Positions 6,857 through 35,037 of a stretch of 64,000 bases of DNA are shown here, one piece after another. Source of the stretch: Amphiscolops sp. MND2022 (lineage: Eukaryota); contig OZ076415.1 of NCBI GenBank assembly GCA_964187785.1, positions 33,480,001 to 33,544,000 of the forward strand, in the 5' to 3' direction. Within the stretch, counting starts at the first letter, position 1. Each line of letters starts with the position of its first letter. The notes under the pieces are model-generated. The model searched no databases and was not told where the DNA came from. It was given only the letters and a program-made list of their open reading frames with translations. A program made the translations under genes and the position numbers.

Positions 6857-6862
6857 TTATAT

Positions 6863-7367
6863 TGTAGCAATGCGCTATTTCTAATTTAGTTCATTTTCCC
6901 AACAGAGGAAATTGACTCAGAGACATAATAATTTCCAAAGCGGAATTATTAGAGCATTTTAATTTCTAAGCGAATAGCAACGCGCTAAAAGGAAATTGCA
7001 ATTCCCAAATTCCTTTAATGCTCAGCCAATAGGAAAAAGCCACGCGACAGTAGAACTGTCCTGAGCTGGAAAGAGAAATACAGGTACCCATTCCAACGCG
7101 GAACACTGAGAATTCACTCGCTCTCTTCTCTTCTCTTTCTTTCCTTACTTTGCTCTCTGACTTAAAACTCTCCCTTAAATTCAGCTGACAAAGAGTCCTG
7201 AATTTTAACTTAGAAATATTCTAAAGTCTGAAATGCTCGACTTAGAAAATTATTCTATCTTATAAACACCCCACTTCTAATTTACCTTCACTTTATAACA
7301 ATTTTTTGAGACTTATTGCAAAGTTAGAAAGCGAGTCCTAAGTAACTAAAATCACCGGTTTACAACA
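6863..7367 (+). repeat. 5' LTR
   Basis: Identical to 18583-19087 except at 7048/18768 (C/T) and 7308/19028 (G/T). CCAAT box near 7026. Confidence 0.97.
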
Positions 7368-7369
7368 TC

Positions 7370-7381
7370 TGGTGCGACCAG
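7370..7381 (+). promoter_or_regulatory. Primer-binding site (PBS)
   Basis: TGGTGCGACCAG 2 nt after the 5' LTR, complementary to a tRNA CCA end. Primer tRNA not assigned. Confidence 0.75.
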
Positions 7382-8029
7382 AGCAAAGAACAAAATCACT
7401 CCGCAATTTGTACGACCATAAAACCGAGCGTACAAAATAAATCTCTTTTCCCTGTGGTGGGTCCTATTTTGCAAAACTGAAATATTTAAAGCAAATATTT
7501 TTGAGAAAATTCAAATTCTTGTTTTTGCAACACTTAGTATCTAAAGCAGATACTAAACAAAATTTCAATTTTTGCAACATTTAGTAATCCAAAGCAGATA
7601 CTAAACAAAATTCATACTCTTGGTACTGAGTCTAAACAGTATCAACTAACGCTAGCTTCGGTATTAGCGTGTGCGGGTTCCGTGGAAGAAATTTATTTCT
7701 GACACACGAGTGTTCCTTAAATTGCACGATCCCAGCGAGGTTTCGCAAGAAATTGGAAAGTCCATATTTCACCTCGCCTGCTGCCTTGGAATCTAGCATT
7801 TCGTGTTAAGGCTTAAATACGCAGAAACTGTCCGTTTCAAAGGAGCAACAAAACTCCAAAAATATATATTTGCCAAAGGATCAAAGAGATTCCTTTGTGA
7901 ACAATTTCTATATGTGTATTGGAGCAAAGAAACTTCTACACAAAAAACCAGTCTGTTATTGCCAGAAATAATAACAAAATTGTCAATTGTGAAAAAAAAG
8001 GAGCAAAATAAACGTGATTAAATAGACAA

Positions 8030-9132
8030 ATGGCAAACACTGTAGCGTACCCTGACTTAGCATTAGAAAAATTCATTGGAATTGACTCAAGTGAAGATCC
8101 AACTGCCTTTACTCGTTTGTTAGAAAAGAAAATCAGCTTCTCGCTAGGAAGTAGACCTACGGCAAATGAGAACGGCCAACAAACCGTTTATGACGACCGT
8201 AGAAAAGCACTTTTTGGATCAGTCCTACGCGGACCTGCGGCTGAGTGGTTTGATTCACTAGACGCTGCGTTAACATGGGAAGAATGAAAACACAGTTCAT
8301 AAACAGGTTCACGGACGGAAAAATGCAATATAGATTCCGAATTGAGGCCGAGAATCTGAAAAGACAGCCTGATGAAAATATAAAAAGTTACATCCACAGA
8401 ATAAAAACGTTGGTAGACAAAGGCTGGCCAACACCGTCAAATGCGAATCAAGAGGCTATCACAGCATGCGAAAATCAGAGAATTGGGAAGTACAAAGACT
8501 ACTTCATAAGAGGCTTAATGCCCCCGGGTCTTAAACAGAAAGCCCATCAAGCAATGATTGAAGATCCCAACAAATCATGGGACGCTTTACAGGCTCTTAT
8601 CATAAATAAAGATATGAGTTTAGTTGTGAGTGCCGAAATGTCCGGCTTGCAACCTTCAAGTTCCCAAACTTCAACAGGGACAATGGACGCCCGTTTCACT
8701 AACATAGAGAAAACATTGAATGAAATCACCAACATGGTGAAAAATCATCAAATCAATGCTACCTATGACCCGAACAACCCAAAAATGAAACAAGACTTTA
8801 CTAGATTTTGCAACTATTGCAAAAAATCCGGACACACAATCAAGTACTGTTGGACATTGAAAAAGAAGAAAGAAAACGAGGAAAAACCTCCTCCCCAACC
8901 AAAAGAAACATATGCGCAAAACTATCCAAGTCGACCCAAGTCTCCGAATAATAACACATCGCAATCGGACAATCGGTCCAACGGCCAAAGAGGCAGAAGT
9001 AATAGTCCTTATGTTTCAAATAGCTATCGAAGCAGAAGTAACAGCTACTCTGGAGCTGTTCGGTTCGAAGCAAGGCCTGACAAGGTGAATTCTTTGTATG
9101 ACACTCTGCAGTCATGCAATCCTTTAAACTAA
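8030..9132 (+). CDS. gag: Gag with one internal frameshift near 8283
   Basis: 8030-8287 (KFIGIDSSEDP..LRGPAAEWF) continues in the -1 frame (KTQFINRF..CNYCKKSGHTIKYC, a CCHC knuckle). Confidence 0.85.
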
Positions 9133-12100
9133 TCAAGTCTCCGAACCAACAAAGTGAGGAATCAAATGAAACCCCTCACATTCCAACTGCTGGAACGTCC
9201 GGCCAACATTTTTATATAGAATTATTCCAATACGCCGTCGGAGACAAAAATAAACATAATGGCCTTAGCACCCAATTTCTCATAGATACTGGCGCAACGT
9301 GCTCCATTATCAACCGTGAGACATTCACTGAGATTAACAAAATTCAGCCTTTAGTTGTAACGCCTCTCGAGAAATCGCCTTTAGCTGCTAATGGACACGC
9401 AATGCCCATGAAAGGGAAAACTATTATTCAGTCTGCGTTTGACGTAGAATATTCTTGTGTGATCGAACACACTGTTTATGTGTCTGATTCCCCCGAGGCG
9501 AGAATGAACATTCTTGGAATGGATTTTTTGGCAAATTTTGGTGAATTCATTAACTTGAGAAATCCAATGCTAATTTTAACGGTCTTCCCCGGCAAATGTG
9601 TTAAACTGTCGCCTTATTTAGACAAGCCTTTTCCCTACTTCTCCCAGGTTAATTCAGTAGAATTGACTCAAGACATTACAATTGCACCGTATTCGACCCG
9701 AGTTTTGAGTTTAATTGCTAGAGATGAAGATAAACATTTGTTCAAACAGGGAACAAGTTTCCGTTTACACCAAGACATTTTAGATACTGGCATTTACAGG
9801 TATCACGTGTATTGCTCACAAGACGAGTCGAAATATCCTTTAATGCTGAACAATCCGAACCCGAATAGTATTACTATTCGTAAAGGAATCCTTGGATACA
9901 CATTGCTCGACAGCGTCCAAGAGACCTCGCAATTGATGAGTGTCGTTGACAATGTCGCTTTCATTGAGTATCTCAAAACTTCTGAGTCTCAATGGAACAA
10001 GGATTTACACGTTTGTTCGACCGAACCGTATATTTATTCCTTAACGGAAATTGATTCACGGAAACAAATGGCCGAAAGCGCTATTTCGCAAAATGAACTG
10101 GCTACTGATTTCTCCAATGAGGTGAAATCATTACAGCCCAAAATTGCTTCCGATATTAAAAGGAAACAACTCGACGATGAATTTTACGCCGAGTTTAGTC
10201 CCGCCGAACGCAACTTTTTAGAAAAGTTCGACTTTTCTGAATCTGATATGAATGACCGTGAATTACAACATCTTCTCCGAGTTTTAGTTGAAAACAATGA
10301 CGTGTTTTCAAAATTTACTTATGATGTTGGAAAAATCACACAAACATTTCATGTACAATTGAAGAAAAACGCCGAATTACGAAAACAAAGGCCCTCAAAA
10401 GTCCCTCTGCACTACAGAGACCGACTTGAAATTCTTCTGAATGAACTGCAACGAGCTGGAATCATTCGAGAAATGGGAAATGATGTGGAAATGGGTTCCC
10501 TATTCACAAACCCTATCATCATTTTACCAAAAGGAGATACCGTGAAGCTTGTGATTGACGCACGTTATCTTAACTCAATCACTGACTTGACTAACTACTC
10601 ATGGCCCCTTGAACCAGTACAAATGTTACTGACACGACTTGATGGAGTTTATTACACAACGAGTGATTTAGCTTCCGCCTATAACCAAGTACCCCTCACC
10701 GAGGATACGAAGAAGTTGACAAGCTTTATTGTTGGTGGAAAACAGTACATGTTCGAACGAGGATTCTATGGTCTTTGCGGACTACCAAACTTCTTCAGTT
10801 GGATAATGACTATTCATTTCGCTGAAATGATAGCCAAGAAACAAGTGATAACATATATTGATGATGTTATCTTACAGGCAAAAACCAAACAAGAAATGTG
10901 GAATAATTTGGATTCATACTTCAAGTGCTTGAGATCATCAGGTCTGAAAGCTGCACCGAACAAAACAAAACTGTTCTTGAGGAAAGTTCAGTTTCTTGGA
11001 CACATTGTTTCCGACAAAGGAATCCAGCCAGTAGCCAAAAAGGTACAAGATTTGAAAAACCTGAAAAGCCCTGAGAACAAAAGAGATGTAATGCGCATCT
11101 TAGGAAGTTTAGGTTTCTACAGCACCTTCATCAAAAATCTACATGTAGATTCGAAACCTTTCTACGAACTTCTGAGAGATGACACTCCATTCAAATGGAC
11201 AAAAGAGCATGAGAACTTGTTCCAAGACATAAAAAATAGAATCAGCGAAGAAACCATCTTAGCTGTACCAAACCCAAAGTATCCGTTCCACATCCATGTC
11301 GACTCCTCCAGTATTGGTACGGGATCAATCTTAATTCAAGATTTTCCTTCCGGGAAACGTATAGTTTCCTTCAATTCGCGAGTCTTTACAAAGGATGAAC
11401 AAAAGATGTCAACGCTACATCGAGAACTGTGCGGAATCATTTCTGCTCTACAAACGTATGAGCATTTCATAATTGGATCTCGGCATCCCATCAAGGTATT
11501 CTGTGATCACAAGCCCCTCCTGTATCTATGGGCACGCAAAGGAAGATTATCTCATAGATTCTTCCGCTACCAAGTGATTATCACTCAGTTCACTAATTTG
11601 CAAATCATTTGGACCCCTGGAAAGAATTTAGCGTTTCCAGATTTGCTGAGCAGGAATGTGTCGTTGAAAGATCTCAACGGTCACCAATTACTTCACAAAG
11701 AAATTGCAAAAGATATAAAGTTCTTCAGCCAAAGTGGACACGAAGTTCAGTATCTGATAGACCACAACAGCCCTGCTGAAAGCGCCAATGATGATTTTTA
11801 CCCAATTGTTTGCACTCACCTGGGTGAAACCAAGAAGCTTCACCTGAAAAAAGATGGTACAGATCTTATTTGTACGGTATACGATCCAAACTCTCCGAAA
11901 GCGCTCTTTGATGTTTCTGACTCCTTCCGTGAAGGTAAGGACATCAACATTCGACGTAAATGGCAAACCCCACCAATGGTTGTGGAAGCCGAAGTTCAGG
12001 AAAATCATTATTCCGAAATTGACTCCGAAACTGACAATAGTGACAATGAGGCTTCTGACGAAGATCCTCTATTGAACACAGAGGTTGTAAATGCATCTAA

Positions 12101-14048
12101 AGAAGATGTTCCTTTCATCCTCTCCATTTTCACCATTCAAGACTCACTACAACCATTGAAACTCGTTACCGATAATCTAGATTTAAACAATATTTTGGCA
12201 AACCAACAGGATGACCCAGTCCTGAACACTGTTAAATCATGGATAATTAAAGGCAAAGTGCCGTCAAAAGATGTTGAGTCCCGACAATGCAAAGGATTAC
12301 TCGGTTATTCAAATCAATTTGAAAAATTGTTCATTGACGAAGAAACACACCTTGTTTGTAAAACTAGCAAGCATTCATCACGACAAATATGTCTGCCCCG
12401 CAACTGTTTCATTGAAGCTTTCAATGTTGCACACGATCATCGGCTTTCAGGACATCCAGGATGTGAAAAGACACTTTCGTCTCTGAAAAGACTTTTCTAT
12501 TGGCCTGGTATGTACAAATGGGTAAGGACTCTAACGAAGAGCTGCCTGATCTGCCGAAAAAATAAACAAATCAGAAAAGATCAAAACACCGCTCCCAACG
12601 AAAAATGGGGAGAAGAAATTCCTTATCCCTTCCACACTGTTCACATTGACCACAAAGGACCTTTGAATCCCATGAGTGACGGAAAACATCACTGTTTAGT
12701 TGTGATTGACGCATTCTCACGATTCATACAAGTTTACCCAGTCAAGTCGACTGATGCAAGTAATACTATTGAAGCCATGACTTCTTTCATTACTTCATTT
12801 GGTTTTCCTCAAAAACTTGTATATGATAGAGGTACGTCGTTCATGAGCACTGATTTCTCAACCTTTCTCTTGGATTTAGGCATAACGCATGCCCCAAGAA
12901 CTAAATGGTCCCCTTGGACTAACGGCAAGGTTGAAATCCAAAACAAACACCTCAGTCGATACTTTCGATGCTATCTTTCCGAAGCAGGAAATAATTGGGC
13001 CAAGCTGGCTCCTCAATTCGCCTTTGCTCATAACACTTCAGTGAACGCCAGTACAGGAGCAACTCCCTATGAAGTTGTTTTTGGATTTAAACCACAAATT
13101 CCGATTTCGTTGAAACTAGGTCTCGTAAGAGACGACAATGATTTGTGTCAATCCGAATTCTGTCAGTCTTTACCTGACCATTCACACATGAATAAAGACA
13201 CGAATCATTCTTGCATTGACTCCTTACTGACGTCAAAATGTTCGTTGGATTTGTTACACAGAGAAACACAATTCAAAAACATATACAGAAAAGTATATAC
13301 CAAAGTTCGTAAAGCGAATCATCGATCTCTGCCGTACCGAAACAAGTACAAACTCGCTAAACCATTGCGAGTTGGACAAAAAGTACTACTCGAAAATCAT
13401 CAAGTCCCATTCGGGAAATCACAAAAGTTGTGCGAGCTCCGAAGTGGACCGTACACTGTGACTAAAGTGATCGCGAAAGTGAACTACCAAGTCGCGCTCG
13501 ATTCGGATCCAACGAGGATTCAAGTCGTTCATCGTAATCATCTCGTTGAATTCTTCCCTCGTGACAATGATTTACCGACTTTATTGTCCAATTACGAAAA
13601 GCCTGTCAACGACGACAGAACCGAACATTTTTACAACGAGTATGCAAAGAATCGACTCTCCGAATTGAACAAACCAATTGAAGCGCTTGCTGAACGACAG
13701 CACGTACAAGAATACTTACCTATTTTTCCCGACGCTCCTGGTCCATCCAGGATGAACACGACTTATAGTTCGCCTGCTAAATGCGGCTCTGCTCATTCGA
13801 CACCGAATTTCTTAGCGAGCTCCCCCGACTCTGGCATCCCGCAGTCATCTCCTCAAACCCCTATTTCATTTCAAGGAGAATCGCCAGCAATAACCAGTCA
13901 GCCAATCACTCCTAGTCCTTTGCCTCGCACTTTTAGTACTAACCCAAACAATATTCCTTCAAATAGCACTGCCGCTGCTCCACGCTCAAGAAACACTGGA
14001 ACGTTACGAAACATTCCTAGAGAGTGGTACGGAAAGCCTTATTTCTAA
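9114..14048 (+). CDS. pol: Pol polyprotein PR-RT-RNase H-IN (1644 aa, intact)
   Basis: LIDTGA protease; DLASAYNQV and YIDD RT; VDSS / ELCGI / CDHKPL RNase H; HDH..GH..C..C zinc finger; HIDHKGP / YDRGTSF / VEIQNK DDE core; GPY motif. Domain order is Ty3/gypsy. Confidence 0.97.
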   Translation: MQSFKLIKSPNQQSEESNETPHIPTAGTSGQHFYIELFQYAVGDKNKHNGLSTQFLIDTGATCSIINRETFTEINKIQPLVVTPLEKSPLAANGHAMPMKGKTIIQSAFDVEYSCVIEHTVYVSDSPEARMNILGMDFLANFGEFINLRNPMLILTVFPGKCVKLSPYLDKPFPYFSQVNSVELTQDITIAPYSTRVLSLIARDEDKHLFKQGTSFRLHQDILDTGIYRYHVYCSQDESKYPLMLNNPNPNSITIRKGILGYTLLDSVQETSQLMSVVDNVAFIEYLKTSESQWNKDLHVCSTEPYIYSLTEIDSRKQMAESAISQNELATDFSNEVKSLQPKIASDIKRKQLDDEFYAEFSPAERNFLEKFDFSESDMNDRELQHLLRVLVENNDVFSKFTYDVGKITQTFHVQLKKNAELRKQRPSKVPLHYRDRLEILLNELQRAGIIREMGNDVEMGSLFTNPIIILPKGDTVKLVIDARYLNSITDLTNYSWPLEPVQMLLTRLDGVYYTTSDLASAYNQVPLTEDTKKLTSFIVGGKQYMFERGFYGLCGLPNFFSWIMTIHFAEMIAKKQVITYIDDVILQAKTKQEMWNNLDSYFKCLRSSGLKAAPNKTKLFLRKVQFLGHIVSDKGIQPVAKKVQDLKNLKSPENKRDVMRILGSLGFYSTFIKNLHVDSKPFYELLRDDTPFKWTKEHENLFQDIKNRISEETILAVPNPKYPFHIHVDSSSIGTGSILIQDFPSGKRIVSFNSRVFTKDEQKMSTLHRELCGIISALQTYEHFIIGSRHPIKVFCDHKPLLYLWARKGRLSHRFFRYQVIITQFTNLQIIWTPGKNLAFPDLLSRNVSLKDLNGHQLLHKEIAKDIKFFSQSGHEVQYLIDHNSPAESANDDFYPIVCTHLGETKKLHLKKDGTDLICTVYDPNSPKALFDVSDSFREGKDINIRRKWQTPPMVVEAEVQENHYSEIDSETDNSDNEASDEDPLLNTEVVNASKEDVPFILSIFTIQDSLQPLKLVTDNLDLNNILANQQDDPVLNTVKSWIIKGKVPSKDVESRQCKGLLGYSNQFEKLFIDEETHLVCKTSKHSSRQICLPRNCFIEAFNVAHDHRLSGHPGCEKTLSSLKRLFYWPGMYKWVRTLTKSCLICRKNKQIRKDQNTAPNEKWGEEIPYPFHTVHIDHKGPLNPMSDGKHHCLVVIDAFSRFIQVYPVKSTDASNTIEAMTSFITSFGFPQKLVYDRGTSFMSTDFSTFLLDLGITHAPRTKWSPWTNGKVEIQNKHLSRYFRCYLSEAGNNWAKLAPQFAFAHNTSVNASTGATPYEVVFGFKPQIPISLKLGLVRDDNDLCQSEFCQSLPDHSHMNKDTNHSCIDSLLTSKCSLDLLHRETQFKNIYRKVYTKVRKANHRSLPYRNKYKLAKPLRVGQKVLLENHQVPFGKSQKLCELRSGPYTVTKVIAKVNYQVALDSDPTRIQVVHRNHLVEFFPRDNDLPTLLSNYEKPVNDDRTEHFYNEYAKNRLSELNKPIEALAERQHVQEYLPIFPDAPGPSRMNTTYSSPAKCGSAHSTPNFLASSPDSGIPQSSPQTPISFQGESPAITSQPITPSPLPRTFSTNPNNIPSNSTAAAPRSRNTGTLRNIPREWYGKPYF
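9123..9129 (+). promoter_or_regulatory. -1 ribosomal frameshift slippery site U_UUA_AAC
   Basis: The gag frame ends CCT TTA AAC TAA. A -1 slip gives FKLIKSP, the pol frame. Confidence 0.8.
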
Positions 14049-14159
14049 TATTATTATAATTTCTCTTTTTCTACTCTCTCTCGCCAAATCATTCCCAACA
14101 AATCCTATGCAAAGCGCATTTGTATAACTTTCTACTGTTTCTATCTCTATTTATACAAG

Positions 14160-16514
14160 ATGTTTTATTTTATTCTTTTCCTTTTTCCTTTTTCTTGTGC
14201 AAGTGATGACTTTGACAATGTGTCAAAGAACTTGTTTGTATCTCATTACGATTGCACAAAAATGCAAGACAATCGAATGTACTCCCTGAATAAGGTAGCA
14301 GAATGCAAGATTACACCAGAAAACTTGTATGTCACGCCGGTTACTATCACACTTTATCAGAAGAACTACCGGACTGACCTGGCAGCAACAATGTGTTCTG
14401 TCAAGGCCCATGTCTTCCGCTACAATTGTGGAATGTTTTCGCATTCGTCCTACGTTCATACTCAAAATAGTATAACATATGACCTCATCGTTACCCCTGA
14501 AATGTGCCGACAGGCATCAAAGACAAACAAAATTAAAATTTCGTCTTTTAGCGAAAACTTCGATGCCCCAATTGAATTCGATACAAAGAAACAATCGAAT
14601 TTCAATGATAGACAATCAGTCCGCACAACCATTCATTGCTCAAGTGGTCAAGTACAGCACTATACCTTCGAGACGTTCATGCAACGTGTGAATTTGACAT
14701 TCGATTACGGAACCAAAGAGGTTTCCAATCCAAATAAACAAAAATTGCCATGTCTTTTAATGGAGGGTGGTTGCGAGACCACTACTTTAGACCCATTCGC
14801 TTACACGTGGGATACTCCCGAAAACTGCGTGATGACAAAAATCCTCACTCAGGAAGCAAAAATGCTTAAGTATCCATTGTCAACGAACAGAAACGAAAAC
14901 CAATTTTTCCTAATCAGCGAATATAATGAGACTGGCAAAGGAATGAACCTCAAAATCAAAGTCTTCCCTGAAAGCTATGAGCTATGTGGGAAACCTGAGC
15001 GATTGTTCGAAACAAATTTTGAGAGTCTATTTGTGACTTACCAAGGAGGTTTCGCAATGCCAGGTGGAGAACTACGAACTAAAGAACATGCTTTTAACGC
15101 CTACCAATTTTCCATTGACAACTCTAGCCAGGTCTCTTATTCGTCATTATCTTTCAGCAAATCAAATGGCCAATGGATTGGTGCACAGCCTTGGCATACC
15201 GTCGGCGCGGATGAAATTGATTATGAATTGCACTTGGGAACAAAGTTAGACTATATAATGTACTTCAATGCGAAGCAATTGAGGCATTCTGAAATGACAC
15301 TTCTGCAGAGTCAATGCGAACTCGAACGAACTCAAATGTTAACTATTTTAATGTTAGCAATGCAAAACACAAGACTTGCCGGTTACATGTTAACTGGAAA
15401 CATCTCTATGTTCCTTGACACCGATGGAAGTGTCGCACGGTTATACCATTGTCCGAAGTTTTTGTCGCCCTTGAAAGTGCTTGATAAATGTTATGATCGA
15501 ATCCCGATCATGTTTGAACGGTCTACGAAATTTGTAGATCCTATCACCCGTCAGACTTATGATTTTGCATCCGAGATACCCTGTTTGGGAGATTACACAA
15601 ATGTGTTTCAACTTGATCTCGAAAATGACAATTCCTGGTACCAACTTTTACCTGAGCCCATGCCTTTCAATAAACCTTTGTTGTTCAAGCCAACTGAACT
15701 TGGACATATTACTCAGTTTCCAACTTTCGACACCAGGCGTGCTGGAATGTACACCCCAAATCAAATGAAAAATTTTTGGGATAATGTAATCCACAACTCT
15801 TCTTCTGATACATTATTGAAGAAGCTTACTCGGACTATTTTGACTCGAGGTAACTCAGTTCGAATTTCCGAACCGGGAAACTTGGAACGTCTTTTGAGTC
15901 TAAATGATAGACTTCTGTTGGATCACTTGTTGACGCCTTCTTTTTTCGTCGATAAATTCAAGGAAACTTTTGGCGAATTGGGATATATTATTCAATGTTT
16001 AGGAAACTTTTTTGCTTGTTTCCTTTTGGTAAAGTTCGTTATTGATGTTGTTGTCATCGTCCTCCGAGGACTTGAAATTCGAAAAGTTTCTGGTGCCACT
16101 TTTGGTTTTGTCAGAACTATGTTAGGCGCAACTTTTAATTTATTTGTTCTCTCACTTCAGACTCCAATGTACGAAAATGAGGAAAATAAAAGGATTTCAA
16201 ATGGTTTCTCGCAGAACCCTGCAGGCAATAGACCTATAGCTGCACCAATGTACGAAGAAAATCCGACTCTTTTGTATCCTCAAGTACATCTCTTGAACAA
16301 TCCGATTGCGATTGGTTCTACTCTTAATGAAAGACAAAGAGCTGACTCAAATGTATTAAATCAAACAGGAAATGCTCCTAGTACATTAAATACCTTTTTA
16401 CAAAATAACAATGGCAATAACAGTTCTGGAAATGCTCCGTCTACTGTCAATGAAAATGCTCCTAGTACCTCAAATAACAACAGTAATGGAAATGCTCCAT
16501 TACCCCCACCATAA
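14160..16514 (+). CDS. env: Envelope glycoprotein, class III (chuvirus G / gB-type) fusogen-like
   Basis: N-terminal signal peptide; HYDC..YSLNKVAEC, CGMFSH, PEMC, CELER..LAGY, HC..KCYDRIP..FVDPITR..PC motifs; six N-x-S/T sequons; TM segment near 15995-16075; long N-rich tail. Confidence 0.8.
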   Translation: MFYFILFLFPFSCASDDFDNVSKNLFVSHYDCTKMQDNRMYSLNKVAECKITPENLYVTPVTITLYQKNYRTDLAATMCSVKAHVFRYNCGMFSHSSYVHTQNSITYDLIVTPEMCRQASKTNKIKISSFSENFDAPIEFDTKKQSNFNDRQSVRTTIHCSSGQVQHYTFETFMQRVNLTFDYGTKEVSNPNKQKLPCLLMEGGCETTTLDPFAYTWDTPENCVMTKILTQEAKMLKYPLSTNRNENQFFLISEYNETGKGMNLKIKVFPESYELCGKPERLFETNFESLFVTYQGGFAMPGGELRTKEHAFNAYQFSIDNSSQVSYSSLSFSKSNGQWIGAQPWHTVGADEIDYELHLGTKLDYIMYFNAKQLRHSEMTLLQSQCELERTQMLTILMLAMQNTRLAGYMLTGNISMFLDTDGSVARLYHCPKFLSPLKVLDKCYDRIPIMFERSTKFVDPITRQTYDFASEIPCLGDYTNVFQLDLENDNSWYQLLPEPMPFNKPLLFKPTELGHITQFPTFDTRRAGMYTPNQMKNFWDNVIHNSSSDTLLKKLTRTILTRGNSVRISEPGNLERLLSLNDRLLLDHLLTPSFFVDKFKETFGELGYIIQCLGNFFACFLLVKFVIDVVVIVLRGLEIRKVSGATFGFVRTMLGATFNLFVLSLQTPMYENEENKRISNGFSQNPAGNRPIAAPMYEENPTLLYPQVHLLNNPIAIGSTLNERQRADSNVLNQTGNAPSTLNTFLQNNNGNNSSGNAPSTVNENAPSTSNNNSNGNAPLPPP

Positions 16515-16808
16515 AGTTTACAAAAAACGTTTACTCTTTAGTGAAATTTCTCTTACTTAAAAGTGATAAGGCTTCTTGGAATAGATACCACTGTGATTGT
16601 TGATGTTTTTCTTCTGGTCACAAACATAATGACACCAGCACAAATTGACTTACAAACCCTATATAACTCGCTTTCTAAAATTTAGTACAGTCGCCAACTA
16701 CTTAACCTCAAGCCTAATACCAACTATTTATTCTCCAGTTACTCCACTTATCCAGTTCTCTTGCTTTTGATATTCACTTTTCATATTCAACTACAAATAT
16801 AATTTATA

Positions 16809-17339
16809 ATGTCGCATGCTATTAACTTGTTCGAACCTGAAGGTTTTATCCCCAACGACTTACGCCCTCCTAATGTCAACTTCCGATCACGAAAAACTAA
16901 GCGGGTAAAGCCCTGCTTCCCCAAACCCTTCAGGCAGGCTAACAAAAGAATAGCCTCTGAAGCTCCTGAGCCAAATTGGCCAAAAAAGACATCCAAATTG
17001 GAAAATGATATGAACTTAGACCCTAACCGCCTGTCAAAGAGACTCGGTGATGGGAAAATTAAAGGCCCCTCGTGCGTGTCAAGGAGACTCGACGACGGGT
17101 TACCCAAAGAAAAAAATTAGTTTCCAAGCCTTAAAGAAAGACTTGATATCCAAAAGTCCCGAGAGACAAATATAGATACAGACGACCCAAAATTCATTAA
17201 ATTCCTGAAGTATGGTATGAGGAAGGACCATAATGAATGGTTCCTTGCCACACCTAAACAAGGAAGTGAACTTGTTAACAAGAAGTTGAATTGTTCCATT
17301 GTCATTCCCCCTGAACGCTCCCCCGCTATAAACATTTAA
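16809..17339 (+). CDS. Accessory ORF4, basic/Pro-rich; in-frame TAG at 17118-17120
   Basis: 103 aa to the TAG, then 72 more open codons in the same frame to TAA at 17337-17339. Lies inside the LTR-bounded element. Confidence 0.55.
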
Positions 17340-17352
17340 TCTACCAAAGGAA

Positions 17353-18369
17353 ATGAATCAATGGAGACTAAAAGATCGTCTTCCCGAAGAAAGGAAGTAC
17401 GTAATCTACAACCATCAAATTGATTCTCTAATTAAAGCCCCCTTTGGTGTAATCACCGCGTTTCCTGACGACCCAAACCCCCTGTTTAACGACAACGCCA
17501 GTACTTGTAGCTCGTCAATCAGTACACCAGCTTCCAAGGAATCACATCATGATAATTCCCAAATCTCACACAACAAACAACCAACAGTCAATGCGACTAC
17601 ACAAACAAAAAATGAAGAGTGGATAGACACACCTGATACCAATCTTACCGCTGCACTCTGGAAAACTGAATTCGCAATTGCCGAATTTGAACAGCAAAAC
17701 CGTAGTCTGAATATCGAACTAGCCAACTTAAAGAATGCCCTCTGCTCTGCCAATCGATCACGAGCAATGGCTAAAGAGAATGCAACTCGAGCAGAATTTA
17801 AGTTAGAGATCTCCGAAAGAGTAACATCAGACCTTTTCGATGAGAACAAGGAACTGAAGAGCCAAATTGAAGAAGCGACCTCCAAAGCGGAGTCACTTCA
17901 AAGTCAACTCTTGGAGTCCATTAAAACAAACATTCTTCTCAAAGAAAAACTTGATGCCTTCGATGAGGCAAATAAACAGTTCAAGGAGATCCTTGATAAA
18001 AAGGACACCAGGCTCAAAGACCAAGCTAACATCGACAAATTGATCAAACAACTGCAAATAATGAGAGTCGAGATTGACATTCAACGTGCAGAGGCTATCC
18101 AGTTAATCCAAGCAGTAGATGGGAAACAATATGAAAAATTAGAAAAATGCCTACACGCCCTGTTAACCCATGCAGACCACTGGGATTGGCAACAGTATGA
18201 GAAGTATTCCATATTTAACCTAAAACGAGGAAATGTAAAAGCCAGACTATCAACTGTATACTACCCCATCGCCTATAACTTCGACAAGGATCCAGAATGG
18301 AAAACCAAATGCACTAGACTACCCTGGCCTGTCAACACGAAACAAGTCCCAACCGGAAAGAATCATTAA
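17353..18369 (+). CDS. Accessory ORF5, 338-aa coiled-coil protein of unknown function
   Basis: Intact ATG-to-stop ORF with a heptad-like E/K/Q/L-rich core and an aromatic C-terminal domain (HADHWDWQQYEKY..LPWP). Confidence 0.75.
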   Translation: MNQWRLKDRLPEERKYVIYNHQIDSLIKAPFGVITAFPDDPNPLFNDNASTCSSSISTPASKESHHDNSQISHNKQPTVNATTQTKNEEWIDTPDTNLTAALWKTEFAIAEFEQQNRSLNIELANLKNALCSANRSRAMAKENATRAEFKLEISERVTSDLFDENKELKSQIEEATSKAESLQSQLLESIKTNILLKEKLDAFDEANKQFKEILDKKDTRLKDQANIDKLIKQLQIMRVEIDIQRAEAIQLIQAVDGKQYEKLEKCLHALLTHADHWDWQQYEKYSIFNLKRGNVKARLSTVYYPIAYNFDKDPEWKTKCTRLPWPVNTKQVPTGKNH

Positions 18370-18570
18370 AAGCCCCTATAAACTGCTCTTCAACAAAAAC
18401 TGAAACTCTTTTAACATGATAATTTGCTTAAACATATTTAACTTTTAAAATTTCTTTACCTTAACGTAAACTTTACATAAAGCTTTACCCATTATTCATT
18501 ATATCCATTTTATAACCATTATACCCATTAATTGATTTTGGTATTACGACTAATGCAGTCTTCTCTGTCA

Positions 18571-18582
18571 ACTGGGGTGAGT
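18571..18582 (+). promoter_or_regulatory. Short polypurine-tract candidate (PPT)
   Basis: ACTGGGGTGAGT directly before the 3' LTR; atypically short. Confidence 0.45.
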
Positions 18583-19087
18583 TGTAGCAATGCGCTATTT
18601 CTAATTTAGTTCATTTTCCCAACAGAGGAAATTGACTCAGAGACATAATAATTTCCAAAGCGGAATTATTAGAGCATTTTAATTTCTAAGCGAATAGCAA
18701 CGCGCTAAAAGGAAATTGCAATTCCCAAATTCCTTTAATGCTCAGCCAATAGGAAAAAGCCACGCGATAGTAGAACTGTCCTGAGCTGGAAAGAGAAATA
18801 CAGGTACCCATTCCAACGCGGAACACTGAGAATTCACTCGCTCTCTTCTCTTCTCTTTCTTTCCTTACTTTGCTCTCTGACTTAAAACTCTCCCTTAAAT
18901 TCAGCTGACAAAGAGTCCTGAATTTTAACTTAGAAATATTCTAAAGTCTGAAATGCTCGACTTAGAAAATTATTCTATCTTATAAACACCCCACTTCTAA
19001 TTTACCTTCACTTTATAACAATTTTTTTAGACTTATTGCAAAGTTAGAAAGCGAGTCCTAAGTAACTAAAATCACCGGTTTACAACA
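18583..19087 (+). repeat. 3' LTR
   Basis: 503/505 identical to the 5' LTR; followed by TSD ATAT. Confidence 0.97.
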
Positions 19088-19091
19088 ATAT

Positions 19092-26425: not shown

Positions 26426-27177
26426 CTTACTTTGCTGAATTACGCAGAAGTATCTCACTGTCCCGGATAACAAGACGACACTGGCATGTTACTCCCCATT
26501 GGTTATCGCCAATAAGAAGGTGGTGGGAATGATGCAATAGAGCTGAAATAAATGCAATCAATGAGCCTCATGCTACACCATTACCTGCCATTTTGTTGGT
26601 TTTTCATACATGTTTGGAATACTCAATGTAAACGTTAGTTGGACGAAAACATGTATCATGTTACATTCTTTCATCGTGAGAGATGAAACCAGAAACCTTG
26701 GTATTTTCCGCCCACATATAATGGGGAAGGAAGATCATAATCTGTTTTGCGTTTTTCTCCCAAATTTTCCCAAATCTCCACTTTGTTACTCCATTTAGTA
26801 AATTCTAGTCACCATGGCGCAGTAGGTTCGAACCCGTGCTGATGCGTTACATTTTTAGCGGAAAGTATCCCGGTGATTAGCGGGCGTCTTGTTAACTGTG
26901 GAATGTTTTTTCACCTCGGCTAATAATCATCGTGCACGGGTTTTTCAATTTGGAACCTGAATTTGGAAACGAAATGAATCTCTTCGTTTCATAAGCGGTG
27001 AGAACCACGAAGATTGTGGCCATAAACTTTTGTCTTATTTTCCGTTCAAGACTTATAGCCATTCTTCAAGTTGATGAAAGTGTTTCAAGGCAATTTTTGA
27101 TCTGCACTTTGAAATGAATCGCTTTTTGACTAAACTTTCCTTCCACCCATGTTTTATACGAAAACAATCGACGAATA

Positions 27178-29315
27178 ACAATACTTCGCCTTCTTTGTTT
27201 TAGTTTACTATCTCCGCAATATTTTCCACTAAGTTCTCCAAATTGGGCATTCGGTGTTTACTTTTCAGAATGGCATTATTCAGCGATCTGGCATCTAGCG
27301 CAATCTTGACACTTCTGTCTTTTTTGAACGTGATTACCACTGGTTGGATGATCATTTCGTCAGATATTTTGTCGACTCTTCTGATGTGTCCTGCTTCTAG
27401 TAGACTCTAGATTTCTGCGTCCACTGCCTTCTGGAGTTGAAGCAGTACTCGGCGTCCCTTTTGTTGAGTTATCTTCGCCCCTTCTTTAAATTCAATTTTT
27501 ATGTTATGACCTGAAATTTTTCCTTGCCTTTCGAAGAGTTTTGGAAATTTGTTTTTCATTTGTTTTAGTTCTGGTGATAATTCAACGTGATTTACATGAT
27601 TTAAAATGTTGTTTTACTCACTTTCTGGTTTTGCTTCTGCTACATGAAAGTTTAGTTGTGTTAGCCAGTGGCGACCAATCAAAGACCTTTTCCCGTCTCT
27701 TGCAATTACCAGCCTTGCTTTCTTGAAGTTTCGTTTCCCCACCTGCACGTCAACTGTAAAGAAACCAAGTAAGTTTAACGGTTTTCCGTTATAATCTACA
27801 AATTGTTCATTTTTCGATAGGGGCCTGGTAAAAACCAAATCTGACTTTAATATGTTGCGTAAGTCTTCTTTTGTAAAGATCTTAGTTGGTGATCCCGAAT
27901 CGATCATAGTTGAAAATGGCTGTTTGTTTATTTTGCCTTTCAACATGATAGGCGGCGTGCCACATTTGTGCGTGGGTTTCTTCTGCGGCCATCTATCGCG
28001 TACACTGTTTCTTTTTAGTCGGCGCTTTTCTAGGGAAAAGTGCCCGACTCCTACAGTGGCTAGTTTTTTTTTTCGTCAGACTACAATCTCACTCTGATTG
28101 GGCTACTTTTCTTACAATCGAAACTACTAAAACTTCTAGCATAAGAGGCCAAGTCCGGTCAGCGGAAATTAGTGCAAAAGGGTCCCCCCTTTCATTTTTT
28201 ACCTTTTTTACGTAACCTACAAAACCGGAAGAGACCAAAGGGTCCCCCCTTTCAATTTTTTTCGGCACTGTGCAAAATTTTTTCGAAAATTTTTTAAGGT
28301 CTCAAAAGAGTCCCCCCTTTGAGTTTTTTGATATTTTGCAACAAAATGTATGTTAATAAATCCCAAAGGGTCCCCCCTTTTCATTTTTCGGCACTATGCG
28401 ACATTTTCGAAGTTTTTTCAAAAAAAAAATTTCCAAAAAATTTTCAAATTTTATTTTGTTCCCAGTCGGGAAACAGTGATTTTCCAGTCATATAGAGCAT
28501 GAAAGGCACACTTTGGGTGTCTCCAAAGTGTTTTCAAAGCTTTTCATGAATACGTCCTGAGCATATTTAGAAAACTTTGCGCTTCTTGAGCCTTAGATAT
28601 AGCGCCGACTTTAGACGTTCCCGTCTTGTTTTTTTGTACTGCCACCCGTGTAGTTTTGTTGTTGTGCAATTCCTTCTCCAAAGGTAATAGCGAATCGTAA
28701 CGCTTCCTGCGGTTGATTTTTCGGATCAGTGCACAAGCGTTCTTGCACTGTTTTATTGTGCATGTTTTGAATGAATGCGTCCATGATCAATCCTTCCGTC
28801 TGTTGATCAAATTCACAACGTGCTGCTAGGCCTGTCAGTGCGTTCCAGAACTGTCGAAGTGACTCATTAGGTTGATGCTTTCGTGAAAAGAACTTGAAAC
28901 GGTCTAATGTTCTGTTTCTTGGTCTTTGGAACGTTTCCTCGCAGTTTGTTTTAATTTCATTTAGTGACGCTGTTGCAACTGTCATATTCGGATATTTGTC
29001 CGTTAGATTCTTTCGTGCAGCTGTTACCAGAGACAAGAACAAAATGCTTACTATTTTGCGTTCTGCGCGGCCTGTTCGTTGATGTTGTTCAGTAAAGCCG
29101 CCTGCCGTGGTTGGTTTTGTGTGGGTCTTCGCAGTAATTCGTGAACGGAGATAGAATGTTTGGCATTAACTGCTACTATGAAGATGTCCCACAGTTTTTT
29201 CTATTCTGTTTTAGGTGGAGTCTCGTGATGATCCCAGAATGATGGCAGTCCCGCCAGAGCTGACGGACTCCTTGATGATGTGCTTTCGTTCGCGTCATGA
29301 TGTCTCGCAGCGCCA
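27178..29315 (-). pseudogene. Truncated second internal region of the Mag-like element (gag, PR, start of RT)
   Basis: Near-copy of 32805-34579, with its own PBS next to 29316, a deletion of the zinc knuckles, and an insertion at 28017-28630. Confidence 0.85.
28017..28630 (-). mobile_element. DINE-1/HINE-like non-autonomous Helentron element
   Basis: Inserted in a T run. One end reads AACAAGACGGGAACGTCTAAAGTCGGCGCT. The other is a hairpin AGTCGGCGCTTTTC-TAGG-GAAAAGTGCCCGACT that carries the complementary sub-TIR. Internal GGGTCCCCCCTTT repeats. Confidence 0.6.
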
Positions 29316-29512
29316 TGTAATAGCTATCTGTAGCTGAGATAATTACAGAACACTGGTGAACAAGCAATACTGCATTCTCGTTAGACCTTGTGGCAACTGG
29401 ACGTATTTTTATTCAAGTTTTACATGGTTTTTGTATGTAAGCAACTTGTTCAATTAATTATTTTAGACTGCTCTTTTTTTTATTGAGTTCAGCTCGAGAT
29501 TGCTCTCTCACA
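29316..29512 (-). repeat. Shared LTR (3' LTR of the right copy, 5' LTR of the left copy)
   Basis: On the minus strand it is preceded by a PPT and followed by a PBS and gag. Confidence 0.85.
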
Positions 29513-29730
29513 AGCCCCTTTTTAAAGGTAAGTTATACCGATAATAAATGTACGTAATACTGCTGATTTAACAAACAAATATGTATGTATTGGTGAGCAA
29601 CAATTGCCAGAAATGGATAATTTTGTATACAGTAAACACCGTGGAGTTTTTAAAGTTTTTGAAGTTATGATTTCTGGAAGGCTGTTTTAGTTTTCTTCAA
29701 TTGGCTGTGGTTCGTCTAGTTTTGTAATCA

Positions 29731-31230
29731 TCACATTTGTCCGAAGAAGTCTGTCTTCATTCGGTGGCTCTCTCCTCTTCGTATTTCCTTTTGTGAAGTT
29801 TGTATTGTGTCACGTCGCGGGGGCATGTCATTTTCTTGTTTGATTTTTGTGGTTTGGGCATCGTCCCGTACCATCTCCTCCTCCTCTTCGGAATCTGACA
29901 GGTTAATTGTGGATGGTGTTTCCAGAATTGGCGATAGTTTTGGTTTTATGTTCCGTTTTTGTTGTCTTCGTGCTTTTTCGTTTAGTTGTTCAATTACTGT
30001 CTTCTTCTTCTTGATTTTTGTTTTTTGTTGCGTTTCATTTGTTTTCACTATGTCTCTTTCGGTTTCTTGTTCTATTTCGTTATTCTCAATTGTTGTCTGT
30101 GGCGGTTCTGGTATGTCGTTAAAAAATGGCAGTTCTGCTGTTTTTAGTATTTCCAATAGATCTGCCATTTCGCGTTGAGTTTCCAACAATCGGCGATCGG
30201 CTTCTTTTGAGCTACATGGTTGGTCATTTTGATTTGCCAAATCTCTTTTGGAGATTACTGTCTTTTGATTGGAGACTGCGGTTAAAAAAGTGATTGTGTG
30301 CTCCGATTGGTCCATGAGTTTGCCTTTCCTCTTTTTGTATACACTTTCCAATTTGCTGCCCTTGACACGTTCTCGCACTAAACTTCTCGAGTCTTGAACT
30401 GACTCGAAGTCCGACGTTGACAGTTTAACTTCTACTGGGTCTGAAATAGTTGTTGAACGATTGATCAGTAGTTTTTTAATTGTATTTGGTTTATTTCCCA
30501 CATAACGTTCGTATGGTGATTTCATTGATTTGGACGGATACATGCGTAGTGCAAACAGAATTTCAGAGAGGCCTGTGTGATCTTTTGTTCGAACATGTTG
30601 TTTGTTAGTTCTCAACCTTTCGTTGATGGTTCGAATTAATCTTTCGATTATTTCAGTTTCCGCGGGATCTTTATTGGGGCATTCAATATGTCTGATTTGT
30701 CTATTTGCGCAAAAGGCTTTGAAGCGTTTACTACGAAAAATAGTTGCTGGATCAGTACGAATGTTTTGGGGAATTCCGTGTCTAGCTATATAATTTTTGA
30801 GAATTTCTATTACTTTTTCTGTAGTCGGTTTTCTTAGAAATTTTGCTTCTGACCACCCTGTTAAGTGGTCAACGGAAACTAAAAGGTATTGTTTTGCTTT
30901 TGGGGCGTTTTGAAATGGTCCTGCGAAATCAATCGCTATTTCTTGGATTGATTTCCGATGGTTTTGGTAGTTTTCCAAATTGTTTTTGTGTTAGAATAGG
31001 TTTAAGGCTCCTACCTGAGTATTGGCACTGGTGGCAAGTTTTAGCTAACGAGATAACCTCGCGGAGCAGTCGCGGCCACCAGATGTTTGAAACTGTGGCT
31101 AACATCGTGTCGCGGCTTGGGTGGCCGTAGTGTAACGAGCGAATATTGATTGGGCGTAATGCCTTTGGTATTACGAGTCTTTCGTCCATGGACATGAATT
31201 TGTTTTGATCCAGGCTTAGACATCTAAAAT
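29731..31230 (-). pseudogene. Integrase of the Mag-like element
   Basis: LHYGHP..WWP..C..C zinc finger; IDFAGP, VDHLTGW, TDPATIF, IERLIRT. Confidence 0.88.
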
Positions 31231-31630
31231 TCTATCTCCAAGGCGTTGGGATACTCTTAATTTTTGCGCTGTTGGGTTTTTGAATTAATGTTACTATTTT
31301 TTGGATGAATTCATCAGTTTCGTATAGGGAAGCAAGAGTATAGTTTCCCAACATGTGAAGGACTTCTATCTGATTTACGCTGTAACATATAGGCGTTTTT
31401 ATTGGTGGCTGATTTGCCGAGTAGTTGAATTCTTCACTCATCGTGTTGTTTTCACTCAAATTGTCTGTCTCACTGGATTGAACAGCGTTTACGATATCTT
31501 TGATTGTTTGTTTATTTGCTAATTCGTTCGCACTTGTCACGCCGCGCGTGCTTGGCATTGCGCTCTCGCTTGCCATTCCGCTCTCGCTTGTCATTCCGTT
31601 CTCACTTGCCATATCTTTGCGACTGTGTGA

Positions 31631-33590
31631 TTAATTGTTCTTTTCTGAATGTTTTGCCATAGGTTGAGTTTCCGCGATGTGCTTCTGTTGGTTTTCTGAA
31701 ACAAATTTATTACAGGTTGTTCCATTTACCGTGAACCAGTTGCTCCACATTTCTTCTGCTTTAATTTTGTGTATGTTATTATTATTTTCTAATGGGTGAC
31801 GGGATAGCCAATCTGCTATCCCTATTGTGCCACCTGGGAACATATACTACTGTAAATTGGAATGGTAGTAGGCGGTCTACCCTTGTTAGTCTAGAGGAAA
31901 ATGTTTTGTTCGATCTGTTTGTTTTTAATATTGATGCTAATGCCTTATGATCAGATATGACTTCGAATTCTGTACCACATACGAAATTTCTAAAATTTTC
32001 TATAGACCATACTACAGCTAATAATTCTAGTTCGTTAATAGAGTATTTCTTTTTAAATTTGGTCAAGAATCTAGATGCGTAGTGAGTTGTTTCCCATTCC
32101 GTGTTCTGTTTTCGTTGAAGTACTGCCCCTAGTCCTTCTTTGCTAGCGTCGCAGATGATTCTTGTTGGAACATCTCTTTCAAATGTATTATTTCTGTTAA
32201 TTTCTTGATTGCGTCTTTGATTCGTTTAAGTGCTTCTTCTTGCTCTTTATCCCATTTCCGTTCGTTATCCTTGCATAGTAGTGGTCTTAGTGGGGCGCAT
32301 AAATGAGCTAGACCAGGAATGAATCTATTCATTTGAATGATGGCTCCGATGAAAGATCGTAAGTCTTTCAGATTCTCTGGGCGCAGTCTATCCGTGATGG
32401 CTTGCACTTTTTCATCTATTGGTTCGACTCCGGCTGCTGAAAATTCATAGCCCACTCATTCTGTTTCCCTTTTTGCTGATTTACACTTTTCTATTTTCAA
32501 ACTTATTCCTGCTTTATCTAATACAGTTAAAACTTCTTCGACTTTTTTCATGTGTGACTATTTAGTTCCTTTTGTGACTATTAAAATGTCATCAAGAAAT
32601 ACAAACGTGTTCTTTGTTGATGGTAAGATGTTACCCATGATCTTTTGGAACTCTGGGGGCATTATTGGTAATTCATAATAACCTGTGTTGAATGCATATG
32701 TTCCGGTTGACTCGCCTCCCAGAATCTGGCAATTGCAATGCTCTGCTGTGTCCGGGTGGAGCAGTGTTTGTCCATATGCATATAGCATATCCAATGATGA
32801 GAACATTACTTCGCCTTCTTTGTTTTCGTTTACTATCTCCGCAATGTTTTCCATTAAGTTCTCCAAATTGGGCATTCGGTGTTTACTTTTCAGAATGGCA
32901 TTATTCAGCGATCTGGCATCTAGCGCAATCTTGACACTTCTGTCTTTTTTGAATGTGATTACCACCGGTTGGATGAACATTTCGTCAGATATTTTGTCGA
33001 CTCTTCTGATGTGTCCTGCGTCTAGTAGACTCTTGAATTCTGCGTCCACTGCCTTCTGGAGTTGAAGTAGTACTCGGCGTCCCTTTTGTTGAGTTATCTT
33101 CGCCCCTTCTTTAAATTCAATTTTTATGTTATGACCTGAAATTTTTCCTTGCCTTTCGAAGAGTTTTGGAAATTTGTTTTTCATTTGTTTTAGTTCTGGT
33201 GATAATTCAACGTGATTTACATGATTTAAAATGTTGTTTTACTCACTTTCTGGTTTTGCTTCTGCTACATGAAAGTTTAGTTGTGTTAGCCAGTGGCGAC
33301 CAATCAAAGACCTTTTCCCGTCTCTTGCAATTACCAGCCTTTCTTTCTTGAAGTTTCGTTTCCCCACCTGCACGTCAACTGTAAAAAAACCAAGTAAGGT
33401 TAACGGTTTTCCGTTATAATCTACAAATTGTTCTTTTTTCGATAGGGGCCTGGTAAAAACCAAATCTGACTTTAATATTTTGCGTAAGTCTTCTTTTGTA
33501 AAGATCTTAGTTGGTGATCCCGAATCGATCTTTGTTGTGAATGGTTGTTTGTTTTATTTTGCCTTTCAACATGAAAGGTGACGTGCCATT
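31631..33590 (-). pseudogene. PR-RT-RNase H of the Mag-like element, frameshifted
   Basis: IDSGSP, QPVVITFKKDRSVKIALDAR, FLDDIL, ELELLAVVW, SDHKAL. Confidence 0.88.
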
Positions 33591-33598
33591 TCCTCCTT

Positions 33599-34564
33599 CT
33601 AACTGCAACCCTTTTTTAAATCTTCGTCTACTTCTGAGCTGTCCTCTGATTTGTCCGCTGTTTGTCCAATAGGATTAACTCTTCTTATTCCGCCGCGATT
33701 TGCAAATTTGGCATTTCCTCCGAAGTTGGCAACTTTGGGTCTTTTGCACATTCGCATGAAATGTCCAATTACGCCACAATTGCGACATTTCTCTCCTTTT
33801 GCTTTGCACACAGATAAGTGGTTTTGATTAAACTCCAGACCACATCTTGTGCACGGGTTTTTTCCGCGGCCATCTATCGCGTATACTGTTTCTTTTTTAT
33901 TGTACTGCCACCCGTGAAGTTTTGTTGTTGTGCAATTCCTTCTCCAAAGGTAACAGCGAATCGTAACGCTTCCTGCGGTTGATTTTTTCGAATCAGTGCA
34001 CAAGCGTTCTTGCACTGTTTTATTGTGCATGTTTTGAATGAATGCGTCCATGATCAATCCTTCCGTCTGTTGATCAAATTCACAACGTGCTGCTAGGCCT
34101 GTCAGTGCGTTCCAGAACTGTCGAAGTGACTCATTAGGTTGTTGCTTTCGTGAAAAGAACTTGAAACGGTCTAATGTTCTGTTTCTTGGTCTTTGGAACG
34201 TTTCCTCGCAGTTTATTTTAATTTCATTTAGTGACGCTGTTGCAACTGTCATATTCGGATATTTGTCCGTTAGATTCTTTCGTGCAGCTGTTACCAGAGA
34301 CAAGAACAAAATGCTTACTATTTTGCGTTCTGCGGCAAGTTCGTTGATGTTGTTCAGTAAAGCCGCCTGCCGTGGTTGGCTTTGTGTGGGTGTTCGTAGT
34401 AATTCGTGATCGGAGATAGAATGTTTGGCATTAACTGCTACTATGAAGATGTCCCACCATTTTTCCCATTCAGTTTGAGGTGGGGTCTCGTGATGATCCC
34501 AGAATGATGGCAGTCCCGCCAGAGCTGACGGACCGCTTGATGATGTGCTTTCGCTCGAGTCCAT
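33599..34564 (-). pseudogene. gag: Gag of the Mag-like element
   Basis: WEKW..F, RFKFFSRKQQPNES, and CTRCG..H..C plus CRNCGVIGHFMRMC knuckles. Confidence 0.85.
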
Positions 34565-34579
34565 GATGTCGCAGCGCCA

Positions 34580-34772
34580 TGTAATAGCTATCTGTAGCTG
34601 AGATGTTTAGAGAAAACTCGTGAACAAGCAATACTGTATTCTCGTTAGACCTTGTGGCAAACGGCCGTATTTTTACACAAGTTTTATACAGTTTTTGTAT
34701 GTAAACAACTTGTTCAATTAATTATTTTAGACTGCTTTTTTATTGAGTTCAGTTCGAGATTGCTCTCTCACA
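34580..34772 (-). repeat. 5' LTR of the Mag-like element
   Basis: TGTGAGAG..TATTACA, followed by the PBS. Confidence 0.88.
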
Positions 34773-34780
34773 TGACTAGA

Positions 34781-35037
34781 ATCATTTTCGAAGAGAAGCT
34801 GATTTGACAATCAAGTTGATTTGACATCATTTGATCGTTCGAACCGTCAAGTTTTAAAAAAACACTCCTTGAAATAACCCATTCCGTCTTGAATTAATTC
34901 AAGACGGAAAGAGTTATATCAAAGCAGGGTTTTTTCAAAACTTGATTGTTTGAACCATCAAAATGATGTCAAATCAACTTCTCTTCGAAAATGATACGAG
35001 ATCTCGTATCATTTTCGAAGAGAAGCTGATTTGACAT
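34781..35037. repeat. Foldback/MITE-like palindromic element
   Basis: ATCATTTTCGAAGAGAAG(C/T)TGATTTGACA occurs three times in alternating orientation; palindromes at 34882-34909 and 34966-35037. Confidence 0.8.

Follow-up and report, generated by a model that had tools for sequence, protein, structure and literature searches.

A stretch of 64,000 nucleotides of Amphiscolops sp. MND2022 (contig OZ076415.1, positions 33,480,001 to 33,544,000; hereafter the window) was found to carry, at positions 6863-19087, a Ty3/gypsy element with the layout gag-pol-env-ORF4 (ORF, open reading frame) between paired long terminal repeats (LTRs). Taken as a whole, the data are most probably explained by a recently amplified acoel Ty3/gypsy family of the HSV/gB-type errantivirus kind (HSV, herpes simplex virus), equipped with four genes. 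The anatomy of the element, its set of copies, the class III fold of Env, the purifying selection that env and ORF4 are under, and the mosaic structure of two subfamilies are direct results, and infectivity of the family is inferred.

The initial annotation of this locus had set the class III env of this gypsy element against the F-type env of classical insect errantiviruses. Novelty of the combination did not hold, since HSV/gB-type env genes have been described on Ty3/gypsy errantiviruses across invertebrates and animal phyla (Chary and Hayashi, eLife 2026, PMC13524379; statements drawn from this and the other cited articles refer to the parts of them covered here). Thus, the combination belongs to a known and widespread class, and what is new is the host phylum, the evidence of selection and of env exchange, and an accessory slot behind env.

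The host was identified from its mitochondrial genes, read with translation table 5. The nad4 product was 70% identical to that of Heterochaerus australis, and the next named matches (Symsagittifera, Baltalimania and Isodiametra) were all acoels, ahead of other animals. On this sequence evidence the host, overlooked by the initial annotation, is an acoel (Xenacoelomorpha), presumably a convolutid.

Anatomy of the element and decay of the window copy

The features of the element are as follows (all on the + strand):

6859..6862, +, left target-site duplication (TSD), ATAT
6863..7367, +, 5' LTR, 505 nt, TG...CA
7370..7381, +, primer-binding site (PBS), complement of the last 12 nt (with CCA) of host tRNA-Met(CAT)
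8030..8287, +, gag N-terminal piece, 85 amino acids (aa), stop after a frame change
8254..9132, +, gag C-terminal piece, whose translation shows a CxxC-x4-H-x4-C knuckle
9123..9129, +, slippery heptamer U UUA AAC shortly ahead of the gag stop, putative -1 frameshift site in Gag-Pol synthesis
9102..14048, +, pol, open frame, protease (PR), reverse transcriptase (RT), RNase H (RH) and integrase (IN), with a p58_C/SH3-like C-terminus
14158..14159, +, AG that follows a pyrimidine tract and immediately precedes the env ATG, putative splice acceptor of a subgenomic env mRNA
14160..16514, +, env, 784 aa, class III (gB/chuvirus G-like) glycoprotein
16809..18369, +, ORF4, orphan accessory gene, 519 aa in siblings and broken here, with 17353-18369 still open
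18574..18581, +, short purine-rich tract before the 3' LTR, a weak candidate for the polypurine tract
18583..19087, +, 3' LTR, 505 nt
19088..19091, +, right TSD, ATAT

Paired LTRs with TG...CA ends, a TSD, a tRNA-type PBS and the order PR-RT-RH-IN, with gypsy-type Pfam domains, place the element in Ty3/gypsy (Metaviridae). Among solved structures its RT was closest to Ty3 (Ty3 RT E 1e-35, Pr125Pol 7e-26, others weaker), a ranking by similarity to solved structures and not by a tree. No BEL-specific domain occurred among the 12 Pfam families listed for pol, the names that we take to be BEL-specific being Peptidase_A17, DUF1758/1759 and DUF5641. The gag homologue of a related family matched Retrotrans_gag (E 3e-8).

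The signs of youth reported by the initial annotation were recovered. The two LTRs are identical at 503/505 positions, with 2 differing sites, and ATAT stands on both sides; the flank is AT-rich, but a perfect 4-bp TSD was also found in 18/19 siblings with two LTRs. Likewise, pol is a single open frame, and the third ORF is open, with its signal peptide, Cys-rich ectodomain, sequons and transmembrane (TM) segment.

Several candidate expression signals were recognised. The heptamer was kept in 17/20 siblings and in two distant families, and may act as a -1 frameshift signal; the AG directly before the env ATG, kept in 20/20 siblings, is a candidate env splice acceptor. Five host loci were scanned for the primer tRNA, of which one was called as tRNA-Met, one contained tRNA-Val genes and three received no call; the matching tRNA-Met looks elongator-type from its sequence.

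Two lesions and one gene, ORF4, had escaped the initial annotation. The gag gene, one 371-codon frame in 14/20 siblings, is split here between different frames (8030-8287 and 8254-9132), and ORF4 is interrupted twice, at 17118-17120 by a stop and near 17330-17350 by a frame change. In addition, Env of the window copy differs from its homologues at 4 columns with a conservation of 90% or more, and for 3 of these differences only 0-1 of the 20 siblings agree with it, consistent with a decaying copy. Because gag and ORF4 are broken, the suggestion that this copy might still be transmissible finds no support: it is a decayed, defective insertion that does not replicate on its own. It is highly improbable that the copy is active and that its breaks are assembly errors. 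The LTRs do differ at only 2 sites, and among siblings 10 of the 21 single-copy 1-bp indels fall in runs of at least 4, against a background of 8%, so that some 1-bp breaks in homopolymers may be assembly errors or slippage. Nevertheless, the run at the gag break is only 3 long, and the ORF4 stop and frame change, together with the private Env changes at conserved columns, amount to several independent lesions.

A young family with two mosaic subfamilies

In the 1.07-Gb genome, an env search in which 57 of 8849 candidates were scored returned at least 13 full-length matches at 98-100% identity (the window env included), as well as older and more distant families. Twenty sibling copies, picked from the top env matches, were compared. 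Counts of LTRs and TSDs refer to 19 copies, since one lacked a 5' LTR within the fetched stretch; two copies with LTR deletions that inflate LTR distance and one without most of gag-pol were dropped from the counts. The 20 copies sit at distinct target sites, in agreement with a multi-copy element, and LTR pairs differ at 0-5 sites in 17/19 copies. The family is thus young, as the initial annotation had surmised for the element, and also multi-copy and recently amplified.

The copies form two subfamilies (9 and 11 copies) that are about 16% apart in the LTR and about 18% in ORF4, and only about 1% apart in RT and env. Synonymous divergence (dS) between them lay at 0.02-0.05 for PR, RT and env, at 0.20 for IN and at 1.16 for ORF4, and it rises sharply in one step after env. 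These synonymous distances show that the mosaic reflects recombination and not constraint. Such mosaics usually arise when the template is switched between co-packaged genomes, and we infer that this one did so too; the two subfamilies would thereby swap RT and env.

Env has a class III fold at the domain level

The env product has a hydrophobic, signal-like N-terminus, an ectodomain with 14 cysteines and 6 sequons, a TM segment at about residues 606-641 (peak at residue 617) and an Asn/Pro-rich tail of about 140 aa. Each of the 14 ectodomain cysteines was kept in 91-99% of the aligned Env homologues. The protein matched Pfam family PF24664 (Monjiviricetes_fusion) with an E of 4e-41; a sequence search against PDB gave no match, and no furin site of the form R-x-K/R-R was found in the window Env. 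The motifs from which a chuvirus-like glycoprotein had originally been proposed are present, with longer spacing than had been written.

An AlphaFold2 monomer model was built from 68 sequences (pLDDT 72, pTM 0.38). Among the Foldseek matches listed against PDB only herpesvirus gB appeared (best E 2e-11), and against BFVD the glycoproteins (G) of chu-, xinmo- and qin-like viruses came first (E 1e-27 to 1e-25), well ahead of gB, at 13-18% identity for the closest of them. A structural search independent of Foldseek placed gB first (Z 9.1, modest by the tool's own note; root-mean-square deviation (rmsd) 27 over 387 residues); domain IV of gB taken alone reached Z 7.4 (157 residues at rmsd 3.8), followed by rhabdovirus G at Z 5.7 and thogotovirus GP at Z 5.5 and 5.2, so that all three class III lineages scored above the coiled-coil background. 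The class III set of beta-rich fusion and PH domains, long central helix and crown domain was matched domain by domain, and the low whole-chain TM-scores are explained by uncertain domain packing in the monomer model. Thus, the predicted structure makes a class III fusogen fold, of the type of herpes gB and chu-/xinmovirus G, a sound assignment at the domain level, in line with the class proposed initially, and it supports an ultimate kinship of Env with the glycoproteins of negative-strand RNA viruses.

Purifying selection on env and ORF4

Variants that several copies have in common have passed through replication, and private ones mostly arose after insertion. In simple counts, the nonsynonymous/synonymous (N/S) numbers for the env ectodomain were 3/23 for shared variants versus 81/57 for private ones (p 8e-6). 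Shared variants in pol gave 25/123, and env was not distinguishable from pol (p 0.77). Judged by these counts, env is under purifying selection as strong as that on pol; neutral drift of env (nonsynonymous divergence dN and dS at a ratio near 1), which had been singled out beforehand as the outcome speaking against the proposal, was not seen. ORF4 is also under purifying selection according to the comparison between subfamilies (dN 0.064, dS 1.16, dN/dS 0.06).

Env has probably long been linked to this pol lineage

The initial annotation had read the element as a recent one with an env acquired from an RNA virus. In its strongest form, this would make the element an emerging virus that spreads between animals with an env newly captured from a chuvirus-like virus. 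Several data appear to favour such an origin: glycoproteins of negative-strand RNA viruses head the structural matches and score far above gB in the same library, the Pfam family takes its name from such viruses, and a similar capture of a chuvirus glycoprotein has been proposed for the mosquito BEL/Pao element Anakin (PMC7642597). Against it, env homologues follow pol in several acoel families of this genome (36-99% identity) and in a metagenome contig, and env identity tracks IN identity (rho 0.75 over 11 elements, which fall in about 5 groups). Moreover, a profile search of IMG/VR returned no relative of env, and PMC13524379 argues that env acquisition was ancient. Since the divergence of env follows that of pol, and identity of Env to any viral glycoprotein among the matches listed is only 13-18%, recent capture is, on sequence grounds, very unlikely, and the data fit a long co-inheritance of env with this pol lineage. 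Xenacoelomorpha would therewith fill a deep gap in the argument for a pre-Cambrian origin of env.

Relation to known env-carrying elements

The acoel element shares with the HSV/gB-type errantiviruses of PMC13524379 a gypsy pol and, behind it, a gB-like env that has a signal peptide and a TM segment, the order GAG-POL-ENV and the presence of several near-identical copies (here several above 98% identity). That article likens gB-type env to chuvirus glycoproteins and mentions in its Methods a chuvirus-like glycoprotein beside gypsy pol. The acoel family differs in its conserved fourth ORF after env, none being described in the main text of PMC13524379 as far as covered. Under the intact-ORF rule of that study (uninterrupted gag, pol and env) the window copy falls out through its split gag, whereas the family qualifies gene by gene, because each gene is open in some siblings. 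In the parts of that article covered here, the genome list contained no xenacoelomorph group, and acoel terms occurred 0 times in text and supplements, against 18 occurrences of a control term. Among the literature matches listed (mostly open literature, without Repbase), no report of env-carrying elements in acoels was found.

Anakin has the same chuvirus glycoprotein type in the env position of an LTR element (PMC7642597, PMC10084718), but on a BEL/Pao backbone and in insects, unlike the acoel element with its Ty3-like RT and gypsy-type domains. As for the insect errantiviruses, Drosophila gypsy and ZAM resemble the acoel element in their three retroviral genes, candidate frameshift and spliced env. 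They differ in their F-type (class I) env with a furin site, a type to which the class III acoel Env, devoid of the R-x-K/R-R motif, does not belong. Drosophila gypsy and ZAM are the model for infection from soma to germline.

A possible infectious cycle

In the cycle that we propose, element RNA would be primed by tRNA-Met, Gag-Pol would be made by -1 frameshifting and Env from spliced RNA, and Env trimers on enveloped particles would fuse with the target membrane through fusion loops, without furin cleavage. The chances appear about even that the element travels in this way to the germ cells of an animal from its own somatic or stem cells, in the manner of Drosophila gypsy.

Several observations weigh against an infectious family or soften the evidence for it. 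The case is built on sequence and predicted structure. Broken copies form the majority, with open frames in 5/20 for pol, 9/20 for env and 11/20 for ORF4, compared with 14/20 for gag, and at least one env-less deletion copy (L072) exists. The N/S counts carry no correction for transitions and the shared variants represent few events, and the elements compared for co-divergence are not independent. The pTM of the Env monomer is accompanied by whole-chain TM-scores of 0.2-0.33 and uncertain domain packing, and a Z of 9 is a modest value. Finally, purifying selection means that env is useful to the element and is not proof of membrane fusion.

This last point leaves room for a benefit of another kind, in which env would be kept because it directs particles to membranes, brings about local fusion between cells or shuts out rival elements, and the element would copy itself within germ or stem cells by ordinary retrotransposition. 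What Env does cannot be read from selection, L072 has paired LTRs despite lacking env, and, according to PMC13524379, it is unknown how gB-type elements enter cells, and herpes gB depends on partner proteins. Such a non-infectious role is nonetheless unlikely, given the retention of full ectodomain length, all 14 cysteines, signal peptide and TM segment in homologues down to about 30% identity and of env itself in most young copies examined. Infection as the use of Env remains our preferred reading. No fusion or infection test of a gB-type errantivirus was found among the literature matches listed, mostly from open literature, and a young acoel family with an env under clear purifying selection offers natural material for the question of gB-type entry.

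ORF4 and the accessory slot after env

The ORF4 product comprises a basic, disordered N-terminus, a small alpha/beta domain, a coiled coil of about 160 aa and a helical C-terminus, and no TM segment was found in it. Its model (pLDDT 51) is confident only in a helix of about 160 residues between low-confidence regions. Searches returned 111 homologues, many of them full length at 60-65% identity, and ORF4 also lies behind env in families with an env of only 45-55% identity. Pfam gave nothing above chance coiled-coil matches, the Atlas no usable match, and an ORF4 profile no relative in IMG/VR. The ORF4 product would most likely be a soluble accessory protein that forms oligomers and serves as a scaffold when particles are assembled or transported, or else as a decoy that counters host defence.

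A sister gypsy family with a gB-type env (36-39% identical to the window env; LTRs of about 2 kb and 98.8-100% identical; same PBS) has different content in the same place. Inside its LTRs, env is followed by a 169-aa ORF and by a 250-aa ORF with a coiled coil and a TRAF-MATH domain (L060:2781-3533, corresponding to G000:C5:2197380-2198129; also in L073). The latter resembles the C-terminal half of TRAFs (PF21355, E 8e-22; TRAF1, E 4e-13) and may be a captured TRAF decoy. Both ORFs were open in 16/16 copies examined, and about 34 matches to the MATH ORF at 98-100% identity occur in the genome. The 169-aa ORF aligned with ORF4 residues 103-164 better than 200 shuffles, with an hhalign probability of only 12%, and is a lead only.

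In our reading of these sequences, the slot after env is an accessory-gene position whose content differs between sister families. There are precedents for accessory ORFs downstream of env in LTR elements, namely the ORF3s of bdelloids (PMC5408684), and for a MATH domain inside a gypsy element, namely planarian Burro with MATH_TRAF_C (PMC6431247). The acoel case differs from both in that ORF4 has no Pfam or Atlas match and the slot follows a class III env, with content that varies between sister families. The conserved ORF4 and its TRAF-like counterpart suggest accessory genes as in complex retroviruses, hypothetically acting against host signalling. A broader proposal can be put forward tentatively, as a rather improbable one: that acoel gB-type errantiviruses are complex and still infectious from cell to cell, use an exchangeable slot (ORF4 in some lineages, a captured TRAF-like coiled-coil-MATH decoy in another) against innate signalling, and trade env modules between co-packaged subfamilies.

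Further observations concern this slot and its surroundings. In the sister family, pol and env are separated by about 4.7 kb, within which lies a 210-codon ORF without Pfam match (L059:3379-8060). A further set of MATH matches, multi-copy and about 31% identical (G000, e.g., C3:76615645-76616154), possibly represents another element family; many of them carry one TGA at the same length. In a metagenome contig, pol and env (46% identical to the window env) are followed by two ORFs, each weakly ORF4-like (L048:8049-10490), and a 581-codon ORF without family lies directly after another env homologue (L052:2318-4060).

Other features of the window

The remainder of the window contains a second gypsy-type element and several further features. 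The former, at 27100-34900 on the - strand, is decayed and partly duplicated or nested, with remnants of gag, protease, RT and integrase. An uninterrupted 889-codon frame at 59975-62644 (- strand) encodes CCCH-like fingers together with a PARP domain that most resembles PARP12 (E 3e-22), and is a candidate ZAP/PARP12-like antiviral gene on the basis of these similarities. A 1031-codon frame with a STAND/NACHT-like P-loop lies at 44588-47683 (+ strand), followed by ankyrin repeats at 48140-48700. The 573-codon multi-pass membrane protein encoded at 55828-57549 (- strand) had no Pfam or PDB match, and its motifs are, we presume, reminiscent of dolichol kinase. Finally, a remnant of an endonuclease of the long interspersed nuclear element (LINE) type was found at 38878-39996 (+ strand).

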